In this document: positions 1,307 to 12,348 of the stretch, piece after piece
Numbering within the stretch: position 1 is the first letter of the stretch
How the letters are laid out: each line of letters begins with the position of its first letter
IMG/VR virus record: IMGVR_UViG_2671180921_000029
Location: 1-12,348 of that record
Strand: one strand, 5' to 3'
Source: a virus
Lineage: Duplodnaviria > Heunggongvirae > Uroviricota > Caudoviricetes
Length of the DNA stretch: 12,348 nucleotides
Position numbers and translations under genes: made by a program
The notes under the pieces: generated by a model
What the model was told of the DNA's origin: nothing
The model's database searches: none
The model's input: only the letters and a program-made list of their open reading frames with translations

Positions 1307-3787
1307 TTAAAAATCAGCCTGACTCGGGATCATTTTTTGTATCGTGGCTGTAACGTATTTTGCCTGGTGACGGGCGTCATCCAGTGCATTGTGGCGCACG
1401 CCTTCGAATGGAATAAAGGTTCTGGCATCAAAGTCGATTGTTTTTCCCAGCTCAACGATTGTGCGTACATCGCGATCGTTGTGGTAGCGCCACGGGCAGG
1501 GGATGTCCAGACGTTCGTATGAGGTGCGCAAAATTGCGTTATCGAAAGTTGCACCATTACCCCATACCTGAACGAATTTTTCATCTGAGTATTCGTTGAT
1601 GAACTCCCGAAACCGCGAAAGGGCATCCTTCAGTTTTACCTGGTCTGTTAAAATGGCAGCTCTGGCTTCACTGGACTGCTTCAGCCACCATTCGATGGTT
1701 CCACCGTCAGGAACAGCCCCTGTATTCATTGCGTCAGTCAGACTGATAACGATATAAAATACTGGCCCGATTTCCCCTGTTTGTGGGTCGAAGAAAACCG
1801 CACCAATAACCACGATGGGCGCATTGGTGTTGGTTCCCATTGTTTCAAGGTCGATCATCAGGTGGTACCACACTCTGCTGGTGGATGTGATAACGTGATG
1901 ACCGTTCACCGCAATTAAGGGAGCTGCCGTCTCGCCAGTTTCATTATCGCTGGCGTGGTCCTGAGCGCTGCCAGCATTCTCCTTGTGTGGATGTTCAGCG
2001 CCTTCCATTTCCTCCGGATCATTTTCCTGAACTTCAACCTGATTCTCTTCATCGAATGTTTCCTGGTATGTTGCGTCGCCCATCACGGCGCCACAATCAG
2101 GGCAGTTGCCGCCACCGCTCTGACCGCAGGCGGTGCAGACTTTTTCCGCTTCCTGTTGCGCTACTGGCTCAGGTTGTTTCGTTTCTGGCTCGTTTTGTAA
2201 CGCATTTTGGCTGTTTTGTTCCGCTTTCTGGTCGTTCTGTTCCGTTTCTTGCTGGTTCTGATTCACTGAATCGCGGGTTTCAATCCCCTTCACCCATTTC
2301 GGATCATTCGGGTCGCTAATCCCTGCAACAAATTCACCACGTGATGCGGCGAGCAACTGATTGGCGTCAGGCTGGCTGATATTGGCTGCCTGCATAATTT
2401 TCTTTACTTCGTCAGCGGTAACTTTTACCGGTTCTGGTTGTTCAGAATTTTGTGCGGTATTTGCATTTTGCGGTAAGCCTGTGTATGTGCCATTTTTTCG
2501 GGCAAAATATTCTTCTTTTGTGATTTCAGTAGCCCCTGCAGTCAGCGCCTTATTCAGACCAGAAAGTTTGTTTGCGCGACCGTATTTTTCGCCATCCTTG
2601 TCGGTGAAGAGGAAGTAGAACGGCCCCTCACGCTCTACAGATGGTTCGATTTCCACTTTGCATTCGGTTTTTTCGTTGTCCGGAATTGCCGTTTCCACTG
2701 CATCAGTTTCTGGTACTGGCGATGAGAGAGTATCAGTTGCGCTCTGATTTGTTCCTTCATCTTCAAACACGCCCTTTGTAGTCAGGTATTCAGTAATGTA
2801 TTTGTTCAGTGCCACAGGGTCTTTGTGAATGTCGATCGGACGTTCACGGACAAGGCCAAAAATAGTCTGGCGGTCGTAGCGAAGGGCATCAGGCTGTTTG
2901 CGCATTGATGCCGAGATACGCTTCCAGTCTTCACGGTCGTTGTCGATAACTTCATTTTTTGCCCAGCGATGGATGCTGCCGTCAATGTTTCCGGCATCCA
3001 CATCACCAGGCCAGAGAGCGTAGGCCAGTTCGTCATCCAGTGTTTTCCATGTCTGCTTGTATTCGCGATGAATGGCAGCAATGACCGGGCTGATTTTTCC
3101 TGTTGAATTTTCAGTGTGCTGTTGATTGGCTCTGGCGCGGGCGAGATCAACAACAGACGTGTATTTTCCGGTTTCCTTGCGTTCACCTTCGCGACGTTTT
3201 TTCCAGATGCGCATCTCTGCCTGAATTTCGGGCCATTTGGCACCTGGCTTACATTTATGCTTAACCCACCCGATGGCATGCAGCTTAAGCTCCGGATACA
3301 TGGCGTTAACTTCTGGCATTTTCATCAACGCTTCAACGATATGTCCGTCGAATGTTGCCATGTCTTCCTGCAACAGTTCCTGCGCACTAATCACCATATC
3401 AACGGTGATGTTTTCACATGTGTCGAACTTAACCATGACAGCGTTCTGTACTTCAGGGGCCAGCTTGTCAAAAGTGACGTTCATCGGATCTGATTCAGTC
3501 TCAACCGGGACAAAGGAAGCAGAGTCCTCATCCCAGCGGTTTTCCTGCATATATTCAGCATCCCAGGAATCGAGGGCAGGGCGGGGTATACCGGGTTTAT
3601 CCTCGCAAACAAGAAATTTATAAGCGCAGTCCTGAGCAGCCGGATATTGCTCCAGGAATTGCCAGGTAAATTTGGCACGGGCGCGGCGTTCGTCACCGGC
3701 TTCAATGGCAGTGGCTACAGCAATTGCACCTTCTTCCTTTATTGCCTGTTCGTCCGGAATGGCGGCGCAAATAAAGACTTTACTCAT
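1307..3787 (-). CDS. Large phage exonuclease (826 aa) with C-terminal DEDDh/DnaQ-like 3'-5' exonuclease domain; often annotated as exodeoxyribonuclease VIII-like in related prophages
   Basis: C-terminal ~187 aa (nt ~1310-1870) carries DEDDh motifs: MIDLETMG, WGNGATFDNAIL, HNALDDARHQ. Central acidic/Gln-rich low-complexity linker and a CxxC-(9)-CxxC zinc ribbon (CTACGQSGGGNCPDCG, nt ~2090-2130). Weak SD (GAGGT, 9-nt spacer) before the ATG at 3787. Confidence 0.8.
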   Translation of the reverse strand: MSKVFICAAIPDEQAIKEEGAIAVATAIEAGDERRARAKFTWQFLEQYPAAQDCAYKFLVCEDKPGIPRPALDSWDAEYMQENRWDEDSASFVPVETESDPMNVTFDKLAPEVQNAVMVKFDTCENITVDMVISAQELLQEDMATFDGHIVEALMKMPEVNAMYPELKLHAIGWVKHKCKPGAKWPEIQAEMRIWKKRREGERKETGKYTSVVDLARARANQQHTENSTGKISPVIAAIHREYKQTWKTLDDELAYALWPGDVDAGNIDGSIHRWAKNEVIDNDREDWKRISASMRKQPDALRYDRQTIFGLVRERPIDIHKDPVALNKYITEYLTTKGVFEDEGTNQSATDTLSSPVPETDAVETAIPDNEKTECKVEIEPSVEREGPFYFLFTDKDGEKYGRANKLSGLNKALTAGATEITKEEYFARKNGTYTGLPQNANTAQNSEQPEPVKVTADEVKKIMQAANISQPDANQLLAASRGEFVAGISDPNDPKWVKGIETRDSVNQNQQETEQNDQKAEQNSQNALQNEPETKQPEPVAQQEAEKVCTACGQSGGGNCPDCGAVMGDATYQETFDEENQVEVQENDPEEMEGAEHPHKENAGSAQDHASDNETGETAAPLIAVNGHHVITSTSRVWYHLMIDLETMGTNTNAPIVVIGAVFFDPQTGEIGPVFYIVISLTDAMNTGAVPDGGTIEWWLKQSSEARAAILTDQVKLKDALSRFREFINEYSDEKFVQVWGNGATFDNAILRTSYERLDIPCPWRYHNDRDVRTIVELGKTIDFDARTFIPFEGVRHNALDDARHQAKYVTATIQKMIPSQADF

Positions 3788-4132: not shown

Positions 4133-4697
4133 AATTACCTCCATTTTTACAAATGAACTTTGTTGATGCGGTGCCTGGTGCCTCCAGGTGACGTTAACCA
4201 GTTAACAATTAATGCCGGATACAGAGAATCCACCCATAACACTGTTTTTGGTTTTAACTGTTCCGCGTGCGCTTAGCCGCATTCACCGCATCACAAAATT
4301 CACTTTAAAAAGGGCGGCAGAGCAGTCACGGAGTAAAACTGATACCGCCAAACGCCACCAGAAAATTGATAACAGAGGGCGTTGTAGCGGGGTTGTCACT
4401 TAAGCGTATGGTCAACCTGACAACCCGGTGTCCTCAACGGGGAAGGAATAACCCCGCCATACTTACCGCCGCGCCATTTCGCGGAGTGCCACAACCGGAA
4501 GCGCACGGTCGACGAAAATTTAACGACAGGCTATCTATGAACCAGCAACCTCGCCGTGCGCTTTCGCGTTATGCTCTGACTTTTCAGAGAAATATCCTTT
4601 CAGTAAACTGTCAGTGCCGGATGCTCACCCGTGTCCGGCGCACGCACTCCACTTCACCCGTGGAGAACTCCTTAATTACCAACCCTCAGGAGGGTGA

Positions 4698-6772: not shown

Positions 6773-7144
6773 TTAGGCGCGGCGGCATTTTTGCGCCGCA
6801 ATCCATCTCGCTATGAGATCTTCCATTGATTCTTTTTTCTGCTTTAACTCGCTGATTATCTGGCGTTGCTCATCCTCAGGGAAGGCTGAAAAAATCTGCA
6901 ATAATTCCAGTTGATTAGACGTTAACCCTGCATGTGGTGGAGAAATCTCCGGTTGTTCTGCGTATTCCGCATCCAGATACCCTTCCGGCATCCCGTATGT
7001 TTGCTCTATTCTTCTGGCAGCCTTTTCTCCAAACGAGGCCCTCCCACTCATTAGTTGAGATAGGTAGCTCTTCTCTTTGGGTGGCAGAGTTTTATCTTTA
7101 AACCACTCCTTGAGACGTAAACGGCGAATTTCTTTTTTCTGCAT
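6773..7144 (-). CDS. paaR2: PaaR2-type HTH transcriptional regulator (123 aa from the ATG at 7144), in the cI-repressor position
   Basis: XRE-type HTH-like segment (KSYLSQLMSGRASFGEKAARRIEQ). Divergent from a Cro-like gene and first gene of the paaA2-parE2 operon. Start ambiguous: ATG at 7144 (weak SD) or GTG at 7207, which would place the start inside the promoter/operator repeats. Confidence 0.75.
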   Translation of the reverse strand: MQKKEIRRLRLKEWFKDKTLPPKEKSYLSQLMSGRASFGEKAARRIEQTYGMPEGYLDAEYAEQPEISPPHAGLTSNQLELLQIFSAFPEDEQRQIISELKQKKESMEDLIARWIAAQKCRRA

Positions 7145-7183
7145 GTGGTAATTATCTTTAGTAATCACTAAACAAGCAAATAC

Positions 7184-7241
7184 TTGACTTAATGGTTTAT
7201 TAAACACTAAACTCGCAAGAAAACACTAAACCGAGGAAGGT
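7184..7241 (+). promoter_or_regulatory. PR-like rightward promoter (-35 TTGACT 7184-7189, 18-nt spacer, -10 TAAACT 7208-7213) with CACTAAAC operator-like repeats
   Basis: Hexamers at sigma70-like spacing upstream of the Cro-like gene. CACTAAAC occurs at 7166-7173, 7205-7212 and 7224-7231, overlapping the -10 and leader. SD GAGGAAGG precedes the ATG at 7242. Confidence 0.5.
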
Positions 7242-7544
7242 ATGACATTAAAAGAGTTTATTAAATCATTGAGGGTTGGTGATGCTAAGAAATTCGCGGC
7301 CAGACTTGGTGTATCGCCATCTTACTTATCGCAAATGGCGTCCAGACGAGCAGCTATATCTCCAACCCGCGCCCTTATGATCGAATCTGCGACGGAAGGC
7401 CAAGTAAGTAGGGCGGAGCTACGACCCCATGATTGGGAGCTTATTTGGCCTGAGTATGCTAGCGGCATTCGTTTGGGGCAAACGCATGTAGTTCATGCTG
7501 AAGGTGATTGTAGTGCATGCTTATCTGATGGAGTTGATTCATGA
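7242..7544 (+). CDS. Cro-like HTH regulator, YdaS-type (100 aa)
   Basis: HTH segment (FAARLGVSPSYLSQMASRRAAISPTRALMIESAT). Divergent from the repressor-like gene and first gene of the rightward operon. Confidence 0.8.
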   Translation: MTLKEFIKSLRVGDAKKFAARLGVSPSYLSQMASRRAAISPTRALMIESATEGQVSRAELRPHDWELIWPEYASGIRLGQTHVVHAEGDCSACLSDGVDS

Positions 7545-7966
7545 AAATCAAGCATGAACACATCCGCATGGCGATGAATGCCTGGGCGCATCCGGACGGC
7601 GAAAAAGTTCCGGCAGCTGAAATAACCCAGGCTTATTTTGAGCTGGGTATGACGTTCCCGGAGCTATATGACGACAGGCATCCGGAAGCGCTGGCTCGTA
7701 ATACCCAGAAAATTTTCCGTTGGCTGGATAAAGACACCCCTGATGCGGTTAAAAAAATTCAGGCATTGTTACCAGCGATCGAAAAAGCAATGCCTCCTCT
7801 GCTGGTGGCCCGAATGCGCAGCCACAGTTCAGCCTGGTTTCGGGAGCTGGTGGAGACGCGGGAACGACTGGTGAGAGACGCTGATGATTTTGTCGCAGTG
7901 GCGATCGCTGGTTTCAACCAGATGAATCGTGGTGGCCCGGCGGGAAACATTGTGGTTGTGCATTGA
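7541..7966 (+). CDS. YdaT-type protein (141 aa) in the CII position
   Basis: Start overlaps the upstream stop (ATGA), with GGAG SD 7 nt upstream. N-terminus MKIKHEHI... resembles the YdaT family as I recall it. Confidence 0.7.
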   Translation: MKIKHEHIRMAMNAWAHPDGEKVPAAEITQAYFELGMTFPELYDDRHPEALARNTQKIFRWLDKDTPDAVKKIQALLPAIEKAMPPLLVARMRSHSSAWFRELVETRERLVRDADDFVAVAIAGFNQMNRGGPAGNIVVVH

Positions 7967-8037: not shown

Positions 8038-9108
8038 ATGGCTAACGCCTGGCTCAGATTATGGCATGACATGCCAAATGATCCTAAGTGGCGAACAATT
8101 TCCAGGGTGTCAGGACAGCCAATCGCAACAGTGATGGCTGTGTATATCCACCTCCTGGTGAGCGCGTCACGAAATGTCACGCGAGGTCACATTGATGTCA
8201 CGACAGAAGATTTGGCAAGTGCGCTCGACGTGACAGAAGAGGTAATTGATTCAATTTTGCAGACGATGCAGGGGCGGGTACTTGATGGTGATTTAATCAC
8301 TGGATGGGAAAAACGCCAGGTGCTTAAAGAGGACAACGGCAATATTTCGCAAACCGCAAAATCTCCTGCAGAGCGCAAGAGGGCGCAGCGAGAGAGGGAA
8401 AGAAAGCGGGAACAAAATGGCGATTGTCACGGCGCGTCACGAAATGTCACGCACATGTCACGGCAAGTCACGACAGATAAAGATACAGATAAAGATACAG
8501 ATAAAGAAGATCAAAACACTATGGTCCATGGCGTAAAAAACGCCACGAACCAGGCAGGGGATGTTCAGACCGTCAATCCTGGTCAGCCAGCAGGCACGAC
8601 ACCGAAAGCCGATTCAGCGTATGCGCTGAAAGCCGATTCGGGCGCTGTGCAGCAGGTGATGACCGCAAGGCCGGAGCAATCACTCCAACTGCAGCAGCCT
8701 GAAGCCGATTCCGCCATTCAGCGGGAAGCCGATCGGGTAGCCCCGGAAAACACCGGGCAGCCTGTGGGACGAGTGGATTATCCAGATGTGTTCGAACAGG
8801 TCTGGCGGGAATACCCGTTGCGTGCCGGGGCAAACCCGAAGAAATCCGCTTTCAGTGCCTGGAAGGCCAGATTACGCGAGGGGGTGCCACCAGAAGCCAT
8901 GCTGGATGGTGTGAGGCGTTACGCAAGATACCTGGTGGCTACCGGGAAAACGGGAACGGAATTTGTTCAGCGAGCGACGACGTTTTTTGGACCGGACCGG
9001 AATTTTGAAAACCCCTGGTTGCTCCCGGTAAGCGGTACGAACAACCAGCGTTGCGTGAATCACATTTCTGAACCAGATACCGAAATTCCACCGGGCTTCA
9101 GGGGGTAA
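8038..9108 (+). CDS. Putative replication initiator / replisome-organiser protein (356 aa) with the origin embedded in its coding sequence
   Basis: Position after the cro/cII-like genes. SD GAGGTGA before the ATG at 8038 (the ORF track starts at a GTG at 8032). The gene contains iteron-like repeat arrays (see repeat features), as in lambda O / ori. Low-complexity linker between N- and C-terminal domains. Confidence 0.6.
   Translation: MANAWLRLWHDMPNDPKWRTISRVSGQPIATVMAVYIHLLVSASRNVTRGHIDVTTEDLASALDVTEEVIDSILQTMQGRVLDGDLITGWEKRQVLKEDNGNISQTAKSPAERKRAQRERERKREQNGDCHGASRNVTHMSRQVTTDKDTDKDTDKEDQNTMVHGVKNATNQAGDVQTVNPGQPAGTTPKADSAYALKADSGAVQQVMTARPEQSLQLQQPEADSAIQREADRVAPENTGQPVGRVDYPDVFEQVWREYPLRAGANPKKSAFSAWKARLREGVPPEAMLDGVRRYARYLVATGKTGTEFVQRATTFFGPDRNFENPWLLPVSGTNNQRCVNHISEPDTEIPPGFRG
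8164..8201 (+). repeat. Iteron array 1: four GTCAC(G) copies at 10-11 bp spacing
   Basis: GTCAC at 8166, 8176, 8186 and 8197. Includes the 19-bp string gcgtcacgaaatgtcacgc, which recurs exactly at 8434-8452. Confidence 0.7.
8426..8472 (+). repeat. Iteron array 2: five GTCACG copies at 10-11 bp spacing
   Basis: GTCAC at 8426, 8436, 8446, 8457 and 8467, with helical-turn periodicity. Confidence 0.7.
8474..8509 (+). repeat. Tandem 12-bp repeat (CAGATAAAGATA x3, last copy degenerate), A-rich, abutting iteron array 2
   Basis: Read directly from the sequence. Encodes DKDTDKDTDKE in the rep protein linker. Confidence 0.75.
8606..8735 (+). repeat. Four dispersed direct repeats of AAGCCGATYC at 24/72/24 bp spacing
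   Basis: Copies at 8606-8615, 8630-8639, 8702-8711 and 8726-8735 (last copy AAGCCGATCG). They encode a reiterated K/E-A-D-S/R peptide motif. Confidence 0.6.
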
Positions 9109-9148
9109 GTGTTTATTTCAGGTCACGAGGTAATTTTCAGGAGGACTT

Positions 9149-9571
9149 GTGGCAAAAGTTTTTACACAAGAAGAGCGAGAAAAAATTAAAGGGCAGGTTG
9201 TTGAACTCGTACGCCAGAGTGGGCGTGAGACGTTACGGCAACTGGAAGTCAAGACAGGTGCGACAAGATATCTGATGAGCGTTCTCGCAAGAGAGCTGGT
9301 TGCCAGCGGTGATGTATACAACTCTGATTACGGGTTATTCCCGTCTGAACAGGTGCGTAAGGACTGGCAAAATGCCCGTAAAAAGCTCTCAAGGGCAAAG
9401 CTGAAGAAACCATCTGCGGTTGATCCGGACCTTATCTGGTCATTACCAGACGGAGAAATACGCCGCTACGACAGGCGTCAGAACATAATCTGTAGCGAGT
9501 GCCGGAAGAGCGAAGTTATGCAGCGCGTGCTGGCTTTTTATCGGGGAAACTTTCAGGAGGTGCTGTTGTGA
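9149..9571 (+). CDS. Hypothetical protein (140 aa), GTG start
   Basis: SD GGAGGA 4 nt before the GTG at 9149. Lies downstream of the rep gene. No recognisable motif. Confidence 0.5.
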   Translation: MAKVFTQEEREKIKGQVVELVRQSGRETLRQLEVKTGATRYLMSVLARELVASGDVYNSDYGLFPSEQVRKDWQNARKKLSRAKLKKPSAVDPDLIWSLPDGEIRRYDRRQNIICSECRKSEVMQRVLAFYRGNFQEVLL

Positions 9572-11980: not shown

Positions 11981-12192
11981 TTTTATATTGGCGAGGTGAC
12001 GGGAGTTAAGTAGAATTGCTGCGGGTGCTTGAGGCTGTCTGCCTCAGGCATGAACACCAAAAGGCAGATAGAGAAAAGCCCCAGTTAACATTACGCGTCC
12101 TGCAAGACGCTTAACATTAATCTGAGGCCATATCTATGCTCTACACACGTAGGTTAGCCTCTTACGTGCCGAAAGGCAAGGAGAAGCAGGCT

Positions 12193-12348
12193 ATGAAGCA
12201 GCAAAAGGCGATGCTAATCGCCCTGATCGTCATCTGTTTAACCGTCATAGTGACGGCACTGGTAACGAGGAAAGACCTCTGCGAGGTACGAATCCGAACC
12301 GGCCAGACGGAGGTCGCTGTCTTCACAGCTTACGAACCTGAGGAGTAA
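12193..12348 (+). CDS. hok: Hok/Gef-family type I toxin (51 aa), HokD/RelF-like; stop codon is the last triplet of the window
   Basis: MKQQKAMLIALIVICLTVIVTALVTRKDLCEVRIRTGQTEVAVFTAYEPEE has the Hok architecture (N-terminal TM helix, then RKxLCE...). SD AAGGAG 9 nt upstream. The ORF track shows an in-frame 19-codon upstream extension from 12136. Confidence 0.85.
   Translation: MKQQKAMLIALIVICLTVIVTALVTRKDLCEVRIRTGQTEVAVFTAYEPEE

Follow-up and report, generated by a model that had tools for sequence, protein, structure and literature searches.

Short, evenly spaced copies of the motif GTCAC lie inside a replication gene in IMG/VR record IMGVR_UViG_2671180921_000029 (Caudoviricetes), and they raise the question of what the repeats do there. 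The 12,348-nucleotide stretch of this record that we analyzed, referred to here as the window, is the early region of an Escherichia coli lambdoid (Rac/Qin-like) prophage. The gene containing the repeats, rep, is predicted to encode a replication initiator. An earlier reading of the DNA, made from the letters alone (the sequence-only reading), had proposed that the repeats form two iteron arrays of an origin of the lambda type, in which the origin lies within the initiator gene O. The analysis described here suggests that the region is very probably a prophage replication origin located inside the gene of its own initiator. The layout does resemble that of lambda, with phased in-gene repeats and an adjoining A-rich tract in linker-coding DNA. 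However, the lambda label does not extend to the protein, which lacks a match to the Pfam family Phage_rep_O, or to the repeat unit, which is a 7-bp core recurring once per helical turn rather than a unit of about 20 bp.

Two phased repeat arrays and an A-rich tract lie within rep

The plus strand of rep carries nine copies of GTCAC in two clusters. The copies in array I start at positions 8166, 8176, 8186 (GTCACA), and 8197, with a spacing of 10/10/11 bp, and those in array II start at 8426, 8436, 8446, 8457, and 8467, with a spacing of 10/10/11/10 bp; the distance from the first copy of array I to that of array II is 260 bp. The sequence-only reading had likewise counted nine GTCAC(G) copies in two clusters about 260 bp apart, with a spacing of 10 to 11 bp. 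The repeat-finder check that it had recommended gave a concordant result, as Tandem Repeats Finder reported a period of 10 with 5 copies. The 19-bp string said to be common to both arrays, GCGTCACGAAATGTCACGC, was likewise found without mismatch at 8164-8182 and 8434-8452, and shuffled sequences gave matches in 0 of 200 cases. The hexamer GTCACG occurs 13 times in the window versus 4.4 times expected, and 9 of the 13 occurrences fall within 8166-8472. An extra copy is present at 9122-9127, 14 bp past the rep stop codon. No DnaA boxes were found in rep, the nearest match to TTWTNCACA being at position 9160, where a DnaA-box-like sequence (TTTTACACA, 9160-9168) lies at the start of the LygF/DUF977 gene. 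The string ATATCCACC, immediately before array I, was considered as a DnaA box and dropped, as it has two mismatches and looks protein-driven.

The sequence-only reading had placed the end of the feature at 8472. The repeats do end there, but the feature continues with three ACAGATAAAGAT units and an A-rich tract to about 8515. This tract (8473-8515) lies directly 3' of the last array II copy and is 73% AT and 73% purine on the top strand. Among the 40-bp stretches of the 12.3-kb window, 8476-8515 ranks third from the bottom in stability, with a value of -43.5 kcal/mol versus a mean of -55.8 (standard deviation, 4.1). Across the family, the tract has a purine-rich coding strand and a higher AT content than the host, and the DNA just past array II reads (C)AGATAAAGATA, CAGATACAGATA, AGAGAAGAG, or AGAGAAG in nearly all members, whatever the class of the repeat core. 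Across sub-families with different cores and hosts that differ greatly in GC content, the first bases past array II are near-identical ((C)AGATAAAGATA or CAGATACAGATA), for example, in the window (8473-8484) and at loci L054, L064, and L052. This conserved string, at the junction of the conserved N-terminal domain and the mosaic C termini, might in addition act as a joint for recombination in the exchange of modules.

The locus shows three sequence features expected of iteron origins: at least three phased direct repeats, an adjoining AT-rich, easily melted tract, and covariation between repeat and initiator (see below). Alternatively, the sites might bind the initiator mainly for purposes of control, by autorepression, as a transcription roadblock, by titration or handcuffing, or as a fork barrier, with the origin located elsewhere. 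Two arrays are also present in the iteron plasmids P1 and F, where one of them sets copy number. Further, protein bound to array I, in the early part of the gene, could obstruct transcription, and the presence of up to seven copies of the module per E. coli genome makes titration between copies plausible. A control function also has a precedent in phage SPP1, whose gp38 protein has been proposed to stall replication forks at oriR (PMC6316719). However, array II runs straight into an A-rich tract that melts easily and is strand-asymmetric, as is typical of an unwinding element rather than of an operator. The layout also matches that of the mapped origins of lambda and SPP1 (PMC7466680, PMC6316719), and no other iteron cluster was seen in the window. 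We consider it unlikely that control is the main function of these sites, although a control function for array I alone is quite possible.

The repeats accompany the N-terminal domain of the initiator

A tblastn search with the N-terminal 161 amino acids of the rep product identified several Pseudomonas phages, phi1 among them, and Aeromonas phage pAEv1818, with approximately 70% identity over amino acids 1-137. These proteins have unrelated C-terminal halves. Both the pAEv1818 gene and the phi1 gene contain four copies of the core at positions +128/138/148/159, an inverted copy 33 bp on, and three or four copies near +388 followed by an A-rich tract. In phi1 (KT887557; locus L003, 3001-3900), the 299-amino-acid replication gene with both GTCACG arrays is unannotated in the GenBank record, which has a gap between a 68-amino-acid hypothetical protein and "replication protein P" where this gene sits. 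More distant homologues have other cores at the same places: Ralstonia phage Firinga has GCAACG in both arrays and an inverted GTTGC downstream of array I, and a Manatee-Spring virus has four copies of GAACGC at 10-bp spacing, followed by a GAA-rich run. Closer to the window, all nine copies are kept in phage Tritos and in 76 of 80 near-identical viral contigs.

A scan restricted to one genome per species yielded 63 loci from Gamma-, Beta-, and Alphaproteobacteria, Acidobacteria, and other groups. An array was counted when one 5-mer recurred at least three times at a spacing of 9 to 12 bp. By this rule, phased repeats are present at the array II position in about 55 of the 64 loci with enough sequence, and the same 5-mer recurs at the array I position in about 37 of those 55, both counts being approximate because the k-mer picker took A-tract k-mers over GTCAC in loci L002, L011, L018, and L025. 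Phased GTCAC copies are present in all four of these loci, and the arrays are visible in the sequence of L002 and L025. The cores fall into classes that occupy the same gene positions, namely GTCAC(G), GTAAC(G), GCAAC(G), GAACG(C), and a few others, and on this comparison of sequences the core varies together with the initiator sub-family. When the N-terminal domains were aligned by iteron class and inspected by eye, no clear class-specific residues were apparent.

Array I also differs in length among homologues. In Escherichia albertii (L007, +128 to +180), it contains an insert of 21 bp, equal to two iterons and encoding the 7 amino acids TCHGVSL, and in a Pseudomonas sp. prophage (L032, +148 to +218) it contains a 69-bp insert that encodes 23 amino acids and includes forward and inverted copies. 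Because array I grows by frame-preserving blocks, iteron number evolves by in-frame insertion of whole iterons in the loop of the DNA-binding domain. A betaproteobacterial metagenome-assembled genome, CAIJRK01, contains four copies of one homologue of the N-terminal domain (L048, L050, L055, and L059), with 54 to 57% identity. Neither phased repeats nor an A-rich tract was seen at L048 and L050; at L055 and L059, the array I region is without a phased repeat and the sequence stops before the array II position.

The repeats could instead bind a different protein, such as the cII-like/YdaT activator, the repressor, or some host protein. In lambda, the direct repeats bound by CII are spaced 10 bp apart and located within genes; short direct repeats with this spacing in coding DNA are typical of CII sites, and the window has a cII-like gene directly upstream of rep. 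We examined which of the window proteins have homologues within 2.5 kb on either side of 26 loci of the GTCAC class. Homologues of cII/YdaT were found at 3 of the 26 loci, cro at 2, cI at 2, and the Rep C-terminal domain and LygF at 2 to 3 each, versus 26 of 26 for the Rep N-terminal domain. This count removed the idea of a cII-binding site. As the N-terminal domain is the only constant partner of the arrays and its sub-families track the core sequence, the repeats would seem to belong to it. A shared host factor is unlikely, given a host range from Enterobacteria to Acidobacteria and a core sequence that follows the Rep sub-family. Recognition of the repeats by a protein other than the initiator is, overall, very improbable.

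The repeats are selected as DNA rather than as peptide

Because the repeats lie in coding sequence, their conservation could in principle reflect the protein. The motif is read in all three frames, and in array II it is translated in order as TGT CAC (CH), TCA CGA (SR), GTC ACG (VT), TCA CGG (SR), and GTC ACG (VT). In 20,000 synonymous recodings with the protein sequence fixed, the mean number of GTCAC copies was 1.2 to 1.9 (maximum, 8), versus 9 observed, and there were at most 4 phased pairs, versus 7 observed. Comparison of codons among 25 non-redundant homologues from hosts with 34 to 69% GC revealed that those with their third base inside a core are nearly fixed (Ser44 TCA in 23/25, Val47 GTC in 24/24, Gly50 GGT in 25/25, His51 CAC in 24/24, and Val54 GTC in 24/24). 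The same is true of the inverted copy, where the Val65 codon is GTG in all 20 homologues having valine there. Neighboring codons are variable, with Val41 encoded by GTT in 12, GTG in 6, GTC in 5, and GTA in 1, and Arg49 by CGA in 9, CGC in 8, CGT in 7, and CGG in 1. The mean codon entropy is 0.14 bits within the cores versus 1.41 bits outside them (Mann-Whitney p = 2e-5). The lowest-entropy codons counted as outside are those that give the T preceding the core and the G following it. As these codons flank the motif, the conserved unit is the 7-bp core (T)GTCACG, and the spacers of 3 to 4 bp are free. These results demonstrate that the repeats are selected as DNA and not as peptide.

The sequence-only reading had also suggested that the repeats force repeated segments on the protein. 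The peptides are indeed present, ASRNVT at amino acids 43-48 and 133-138 and VTT at 54-56 and 144-146. Since the sites lie in coding DNA, these segments of a surface loop and a disordered linker would be dictated by the sites. The opposite view, that the repeats are a by-product of peptide selection or of recent slippage duplication, or serve mainly as a recombination junction for C-terminal modules, is barely tenable: these peptides are repeated, array length varies by insertion or deletion of whole iteron pairs, and the arrays and A-rich tract lie at the boundary of the conserved N-terminal domain and the mosaic C termini, but the same heptamer is translated in three frames, its synonymous sites are frozen across such different hosts while neighboring codons are free, recoding of the same protein never gives the observed pattern, and recent duplication is excluded by the survival of the pattern, with different cores, among proteins of about 40% identity.

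The initiator has a predicted winged-helix domain and a DnaT-like C-terminal tail

An AlphaFold model of the rep product, built from a 34-sequence alignment, contains an N-terminal winged-helix domain (amino acids 1-97) that is predicted with confidence (predicted local distance difference test score of about 90 for amino acids 11-90). The domain consists of helices 3-11, 16-25, and 29-45, a loop at 46-55, helices 56-63 and 67-77, and a beta hairpin at 78-88. It is followed by a helix at 110-130, a disordered linker at 131-245, and a helical C-terminal domain at 249-317. The nearest relatives of the N-terminal domain among replication proteins are the winged-helix initiators DnaD (N-terminal domain) and pSK41 RepA. 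In this model, array I corresponds to the last part of helix 29-45 and to the loop that follows, which is tolerant of insertions, and the disordered linker begins in the segment encoded by array II and the A-rich tract. Within the linker, conservation is limited to H131, S134, R135, V144, T145, and D147, the residues set by the iterons and the tract.

The rep product matches PHROG 3729 over its entire length (E 5.9e-253, amino acids 1-356 on profile positions 1-356 of 356), a family named "replication initiation protein" by annotation. Pfam gave no above-threshold match. The profile PF09681 (Phage_rep_org_N) aligns end to end (amino acids 5-122 on profile positions 1-118 of 121) but scores below threshold, with 13.1 bits versus a gathering cutoff of 23.3 and an E value of 0.1, and matches only 2 of 34 family members. 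Two PHROG families designated "replisome organizer" also matched, 4880 at 1.3e-6 and 5968 at 6.3e-5. These similarities indicate that the rep product is a remote relative, and at most a candidate member, of the phage replisome organizers. Membership in the lambda O family was rejected, as Phage_rep_O did not match at E <= 0.01 and, at E <= 1, was missing from the results for both the window protein and 33 homologues. Likewise, homology to gp38 of SPP1 was rejected, the hhalign probability being 0.2% and gp38 matching only Phg_2220_C in Pfam.

The extreme C terminus of the rep product, ...SEPDTEIPPGFRG, aligns with that of the host protein DnaT, ...SEPDNHIPPGFRG. In phmmer comparisons with the DnaT chains 6aep, 2ru8, and 9zbt in PDB, E values were 0.003 to 0.011, and the NCBIfam DnaT model gave an E value of 0.0015 and 18.2 bits, below its cutoff of 201. 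The Pfam profile PF17948, for the C-terminal, DNA-binding domain of DnaT, matches 13 of 34 family members (best E value, 1.9e-17) and is absent at E <= 1 for the window protein. A PDxxIPPGF(R/K)G-like tail also ends homologues P0041, P0049, P0099, and P0032, the first three of which have differing C-terminal domains. Such a tail may be a form of DnaT mimicry by which the protein reaches the host DnaB/DnaC or PriA/PriB machinery. DnaT belongs to the preprimosome and is believed to deliver DnaB/DnaC (PMC13377028). In the window, rep is not followed by a gene for a helicase or a loader, and in relatives with other C termini, DnaC-like, DnaB, or P-like genes come next. The lack of such a gene, together with the DnaT-like tail, suggests that the C-terminal domain recruits the host helicase machinery.

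A model for initiation within rep

We propose that initiator monomers would bind the (T)GTCACG cores head to tail via their N-terminal winged-helix domains. As the cores occur once per helical turn, the bound initiators would line one face of the DNA, and an arrangement of one site per turn resembles the tandem winged-helix binding of OmpR/PhoB-type proteins. The complex formed on the five copies of array II would strain and open the adjoining A-rich tract, and the initiator's C-terminal domain would then bring in the host helicase-loading proteins. Array I and the inverted copy would provide extra sites for the same protein, approximately 260 bp upstream.

Arrays I and II are probably not equivalent, judging from their conservation. 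Because array II and the tract are near-universal and array I is found in part of the family, array II with the tract would constitute the origin core, and array I and the inverted copy most likely act as an auxiliary initiator-binding array. Our guess is that array I stabilizes or loops the origin complex, limits rep transcription and origin firing, or serves in copy control. More specifically, array I might be a functionally distinct second array that cooperates with array II about 25 helical turns away and either wraps or loops the complex or throttles rep transcription and origin firing; we put this forward tentatively, as something short of an even prospect. If it is correct, a switch in origin specificity among GTCACG, GTAACG, GCAACG, and GAACGC would require that one protein be rewritten at once in its DNA-binding specificity and in two of its peptide segments. 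With the module in about 40% of complete E. coli genomes and in up to 7 copies per genome, coresident prophages that share an iteron class would then cross-activate one another's origins or titrate them.

Several points weigh against an origin of this kind. The function proposed for array I is one guess out of several. Only two copies are present at L033, L034, and L045, and L048 and L068 have no recognizable repeats. The distance between the arrays is variable, about 210 to 350 bp among loci. Fixed phasing between arrays I and II was rejected for this reason, and a single rigid looping geometry is not supported. The helicase-recruitment step depends on a 24-residue similarity to DnaT with a modest E value. 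Finally, the searched literature contained no mapped initiation site for the family. No published description of the origin was found in a search that covered subscription journals thinly, so that an earlier description is possible, and papers on oriJ give no sequence.

Genomic context of rep

The features of the window are listed in Table 1.

Table 1. Coordinates of the proposed origin, the initiator gene, and other features of the window
Feature	Position	Strand	Remarks
Replication initiator gene (rep), 356 amino acids	8038-9108	plus	
Array I, four (T/C/G)GTCAC(G/A) copies	8165-8203	plus	Encodes end of helix 29-45 and loop (amino acids 46-55) of DNA-binding domain
Inverted GTCACG, single copy	8229-8234	minus	Starts 33 bp after start of last array I copy (8197 to 8230)
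Array II, five (T)GTCACG copies	8425-8472	plus	Proposed core initiator-binding array of origin; encodes part of disordered linker
A-rich, purine-rich tract: three 12-bp ACAGATAAAGAT units (8473-8508), then AAGATCAAAA	8473-8515	plus	Proposed DNA unwinding element
C-terminal tail, last 24 residues, ...NHISEPDTEIPPGFRG	9034-9105	plus	Resembles extreme C terminus of host DnaT
Integrase	1-1020	minus	
RecE-like exonuclease	1307-3787	minus	
DicF antisense RNA	4312-4363	minus	Rfam, 76 bits
DicA-like repressor	6773-7207	minus	
cro/YdaS-like gene	7242-7544		
cII-like/YdaT gene	7541-7966		Directly upstream of rep
DUF977/LygF gene	9149-9571		
sok antitoxin RNA	12023-12198	plus	Rfam, 118 bits

Isolated phages such as Tritos, Evi, and vB_EcoS-689R5 carry the same segment at 96 to 97% identity, which lends the proposed origin indirect support, and rep is labeled in these phages as "DNA replication protein O," "Primosomal protein I," or "phage replisome organiser." A segment at approximately 9046-9198 is common, at about 90% identity, to phages with a different replication gene. 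DicF and sok are the only structured RNAs that Rfam detected in the window, and both are away from the rep repeats. The sok RNA overlaps the 5' end of a small open reading frame that leaves the window and presumably encodes a hok-type toxin. A 21-bp tandem repeat with four copies and 74% matches is present at 2174-2257, inside the RecE-like exonuclease gene of the opposite strand.

Distribution and significance

Of 5426 complete E. coli genomes, 2186 (approximately 40%) carry the segment comprising the N-terminal domain and iterons, at up to 7 places per genome. RefSeq labels the product mostly "hypothetical protein" or "phage replisome organizer" and annotates no origin. At 50% identity, the family of the N-terminal domain comprises 2190 clusters (E <= 1e-3) or 987 clusters (E <= 1e-10), with hosts in Proteobacteria, Acidobacteria, and other phyla. 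Many database entries for the rep protein are partial; one cluster, for example, has 1121 member sequences on contigs under 1 kb. This abundance of partial entries suggests that short-read assemblies of E. coli often break in rep, a multicopy prophage gene.

The origin and its specificity classes amount to a testable map of where replication starts in these prophages. Such a map would help to predict cross-activation or interference among coresident prophages, for example, in enterohemorrhagic E. coli strains rich in lambdoid prophages, and it offers compact cassettes of origin plus rep with different specificities for vector design. The locus is also a natural example of overlapping constraints, in which DNA sites dictate a loop and a linker of the protein predicted to bind them.

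Comparison with known replication origins

The lambda origin, with its iterons and AT-rich tract, lies midway along O; the O protein becomes longer when iterons are added, and the smallest unit capable of unwinding consists of two iterons and the tract (PMC7466680). Lambda iterons are units of about 19 to 20 bp (PMC8022706, PMC7466680). Like the lambda origin and its six-iteron variants in Shiga toxin phages, the window has an in-gene origin, as proposed here, with tandem repeats and an AT-rich tract on their 3' side. In both cases, the segment encodes a linker between an N-terminal DNA-binding domain and a C-terminal domain that recruits a partner (the host machinery, as suggested above, for the window protein), and extra iterons lengthen the protein. 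In contrast to lambda, the window has a 7-bp core every 10 to 11 bp and a protein outside the O family, and a second array and an inverted copy lie in the part of the gene that encodes the DNA-binding domain. Further, rep is not followed by a P-type gene and instead encodes a DnaT-like C-terminal tail.

In the Bacillus phage SPP1, the replisome organizer gp38 binds direct repeats and a DNA unwinding element (oriL) inside gene 38 and has two separate binding regions (PMC6316719). The window resembles oriL in having direct repeats beside an AT-rich tract in the initiator's own gene and, by prediction, two binding regions. NCBI and some phage records name the window protein "phage replisome organizer." The second SPP1 site, oriR, is approximately 13 kb away, whereas the second array of the window is 260 bp upstream in the same gene. 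Unlike the window prophage, SPP1 encodes its own loader and helicase, and gp38 is without detectable homology to the rep product.

The Salmonella phages P22 and L have in-gene repeats, presumed to be iterons, in gene 18, and those of phage L are six imprecise 11-bp repeats (PMC8022706). These phages are lambdoid, as is the window prophage, and have their presumed iterons in the gene of the origin-binding protein; phage L also shares the periodicity of one repeat per turn. Their repeat differs (TGTCCAACGGA), a single array has been described, and the phage L repeats are known from sequence alone. No Salmonella phage was found by tblastn with the N-terminal domain at E <= 1e-3.

In the iteron plasmids P1 (incC/incA) and F (incB/incC), two arrays flank rep, one adjoining an unwinding element and forming the origin and the other serving in copy control. 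The window shares with these plasmids the pairing of a winged-helix initiator, as modeled here, with two direct-repeat arrays. The plasmid iterons are about 19 to 22 bp and intergenic, in contrast to the 7-bp cores of the window, where both arrays are in coding sequence. Taken together, the system would appear to be an uncharacterized addition to the well-known in-gene iteron origins of temperate phages, with an initiator of another protein family, neither lambda O nor gp38. The two-array arrangement is its only architectural novelty.

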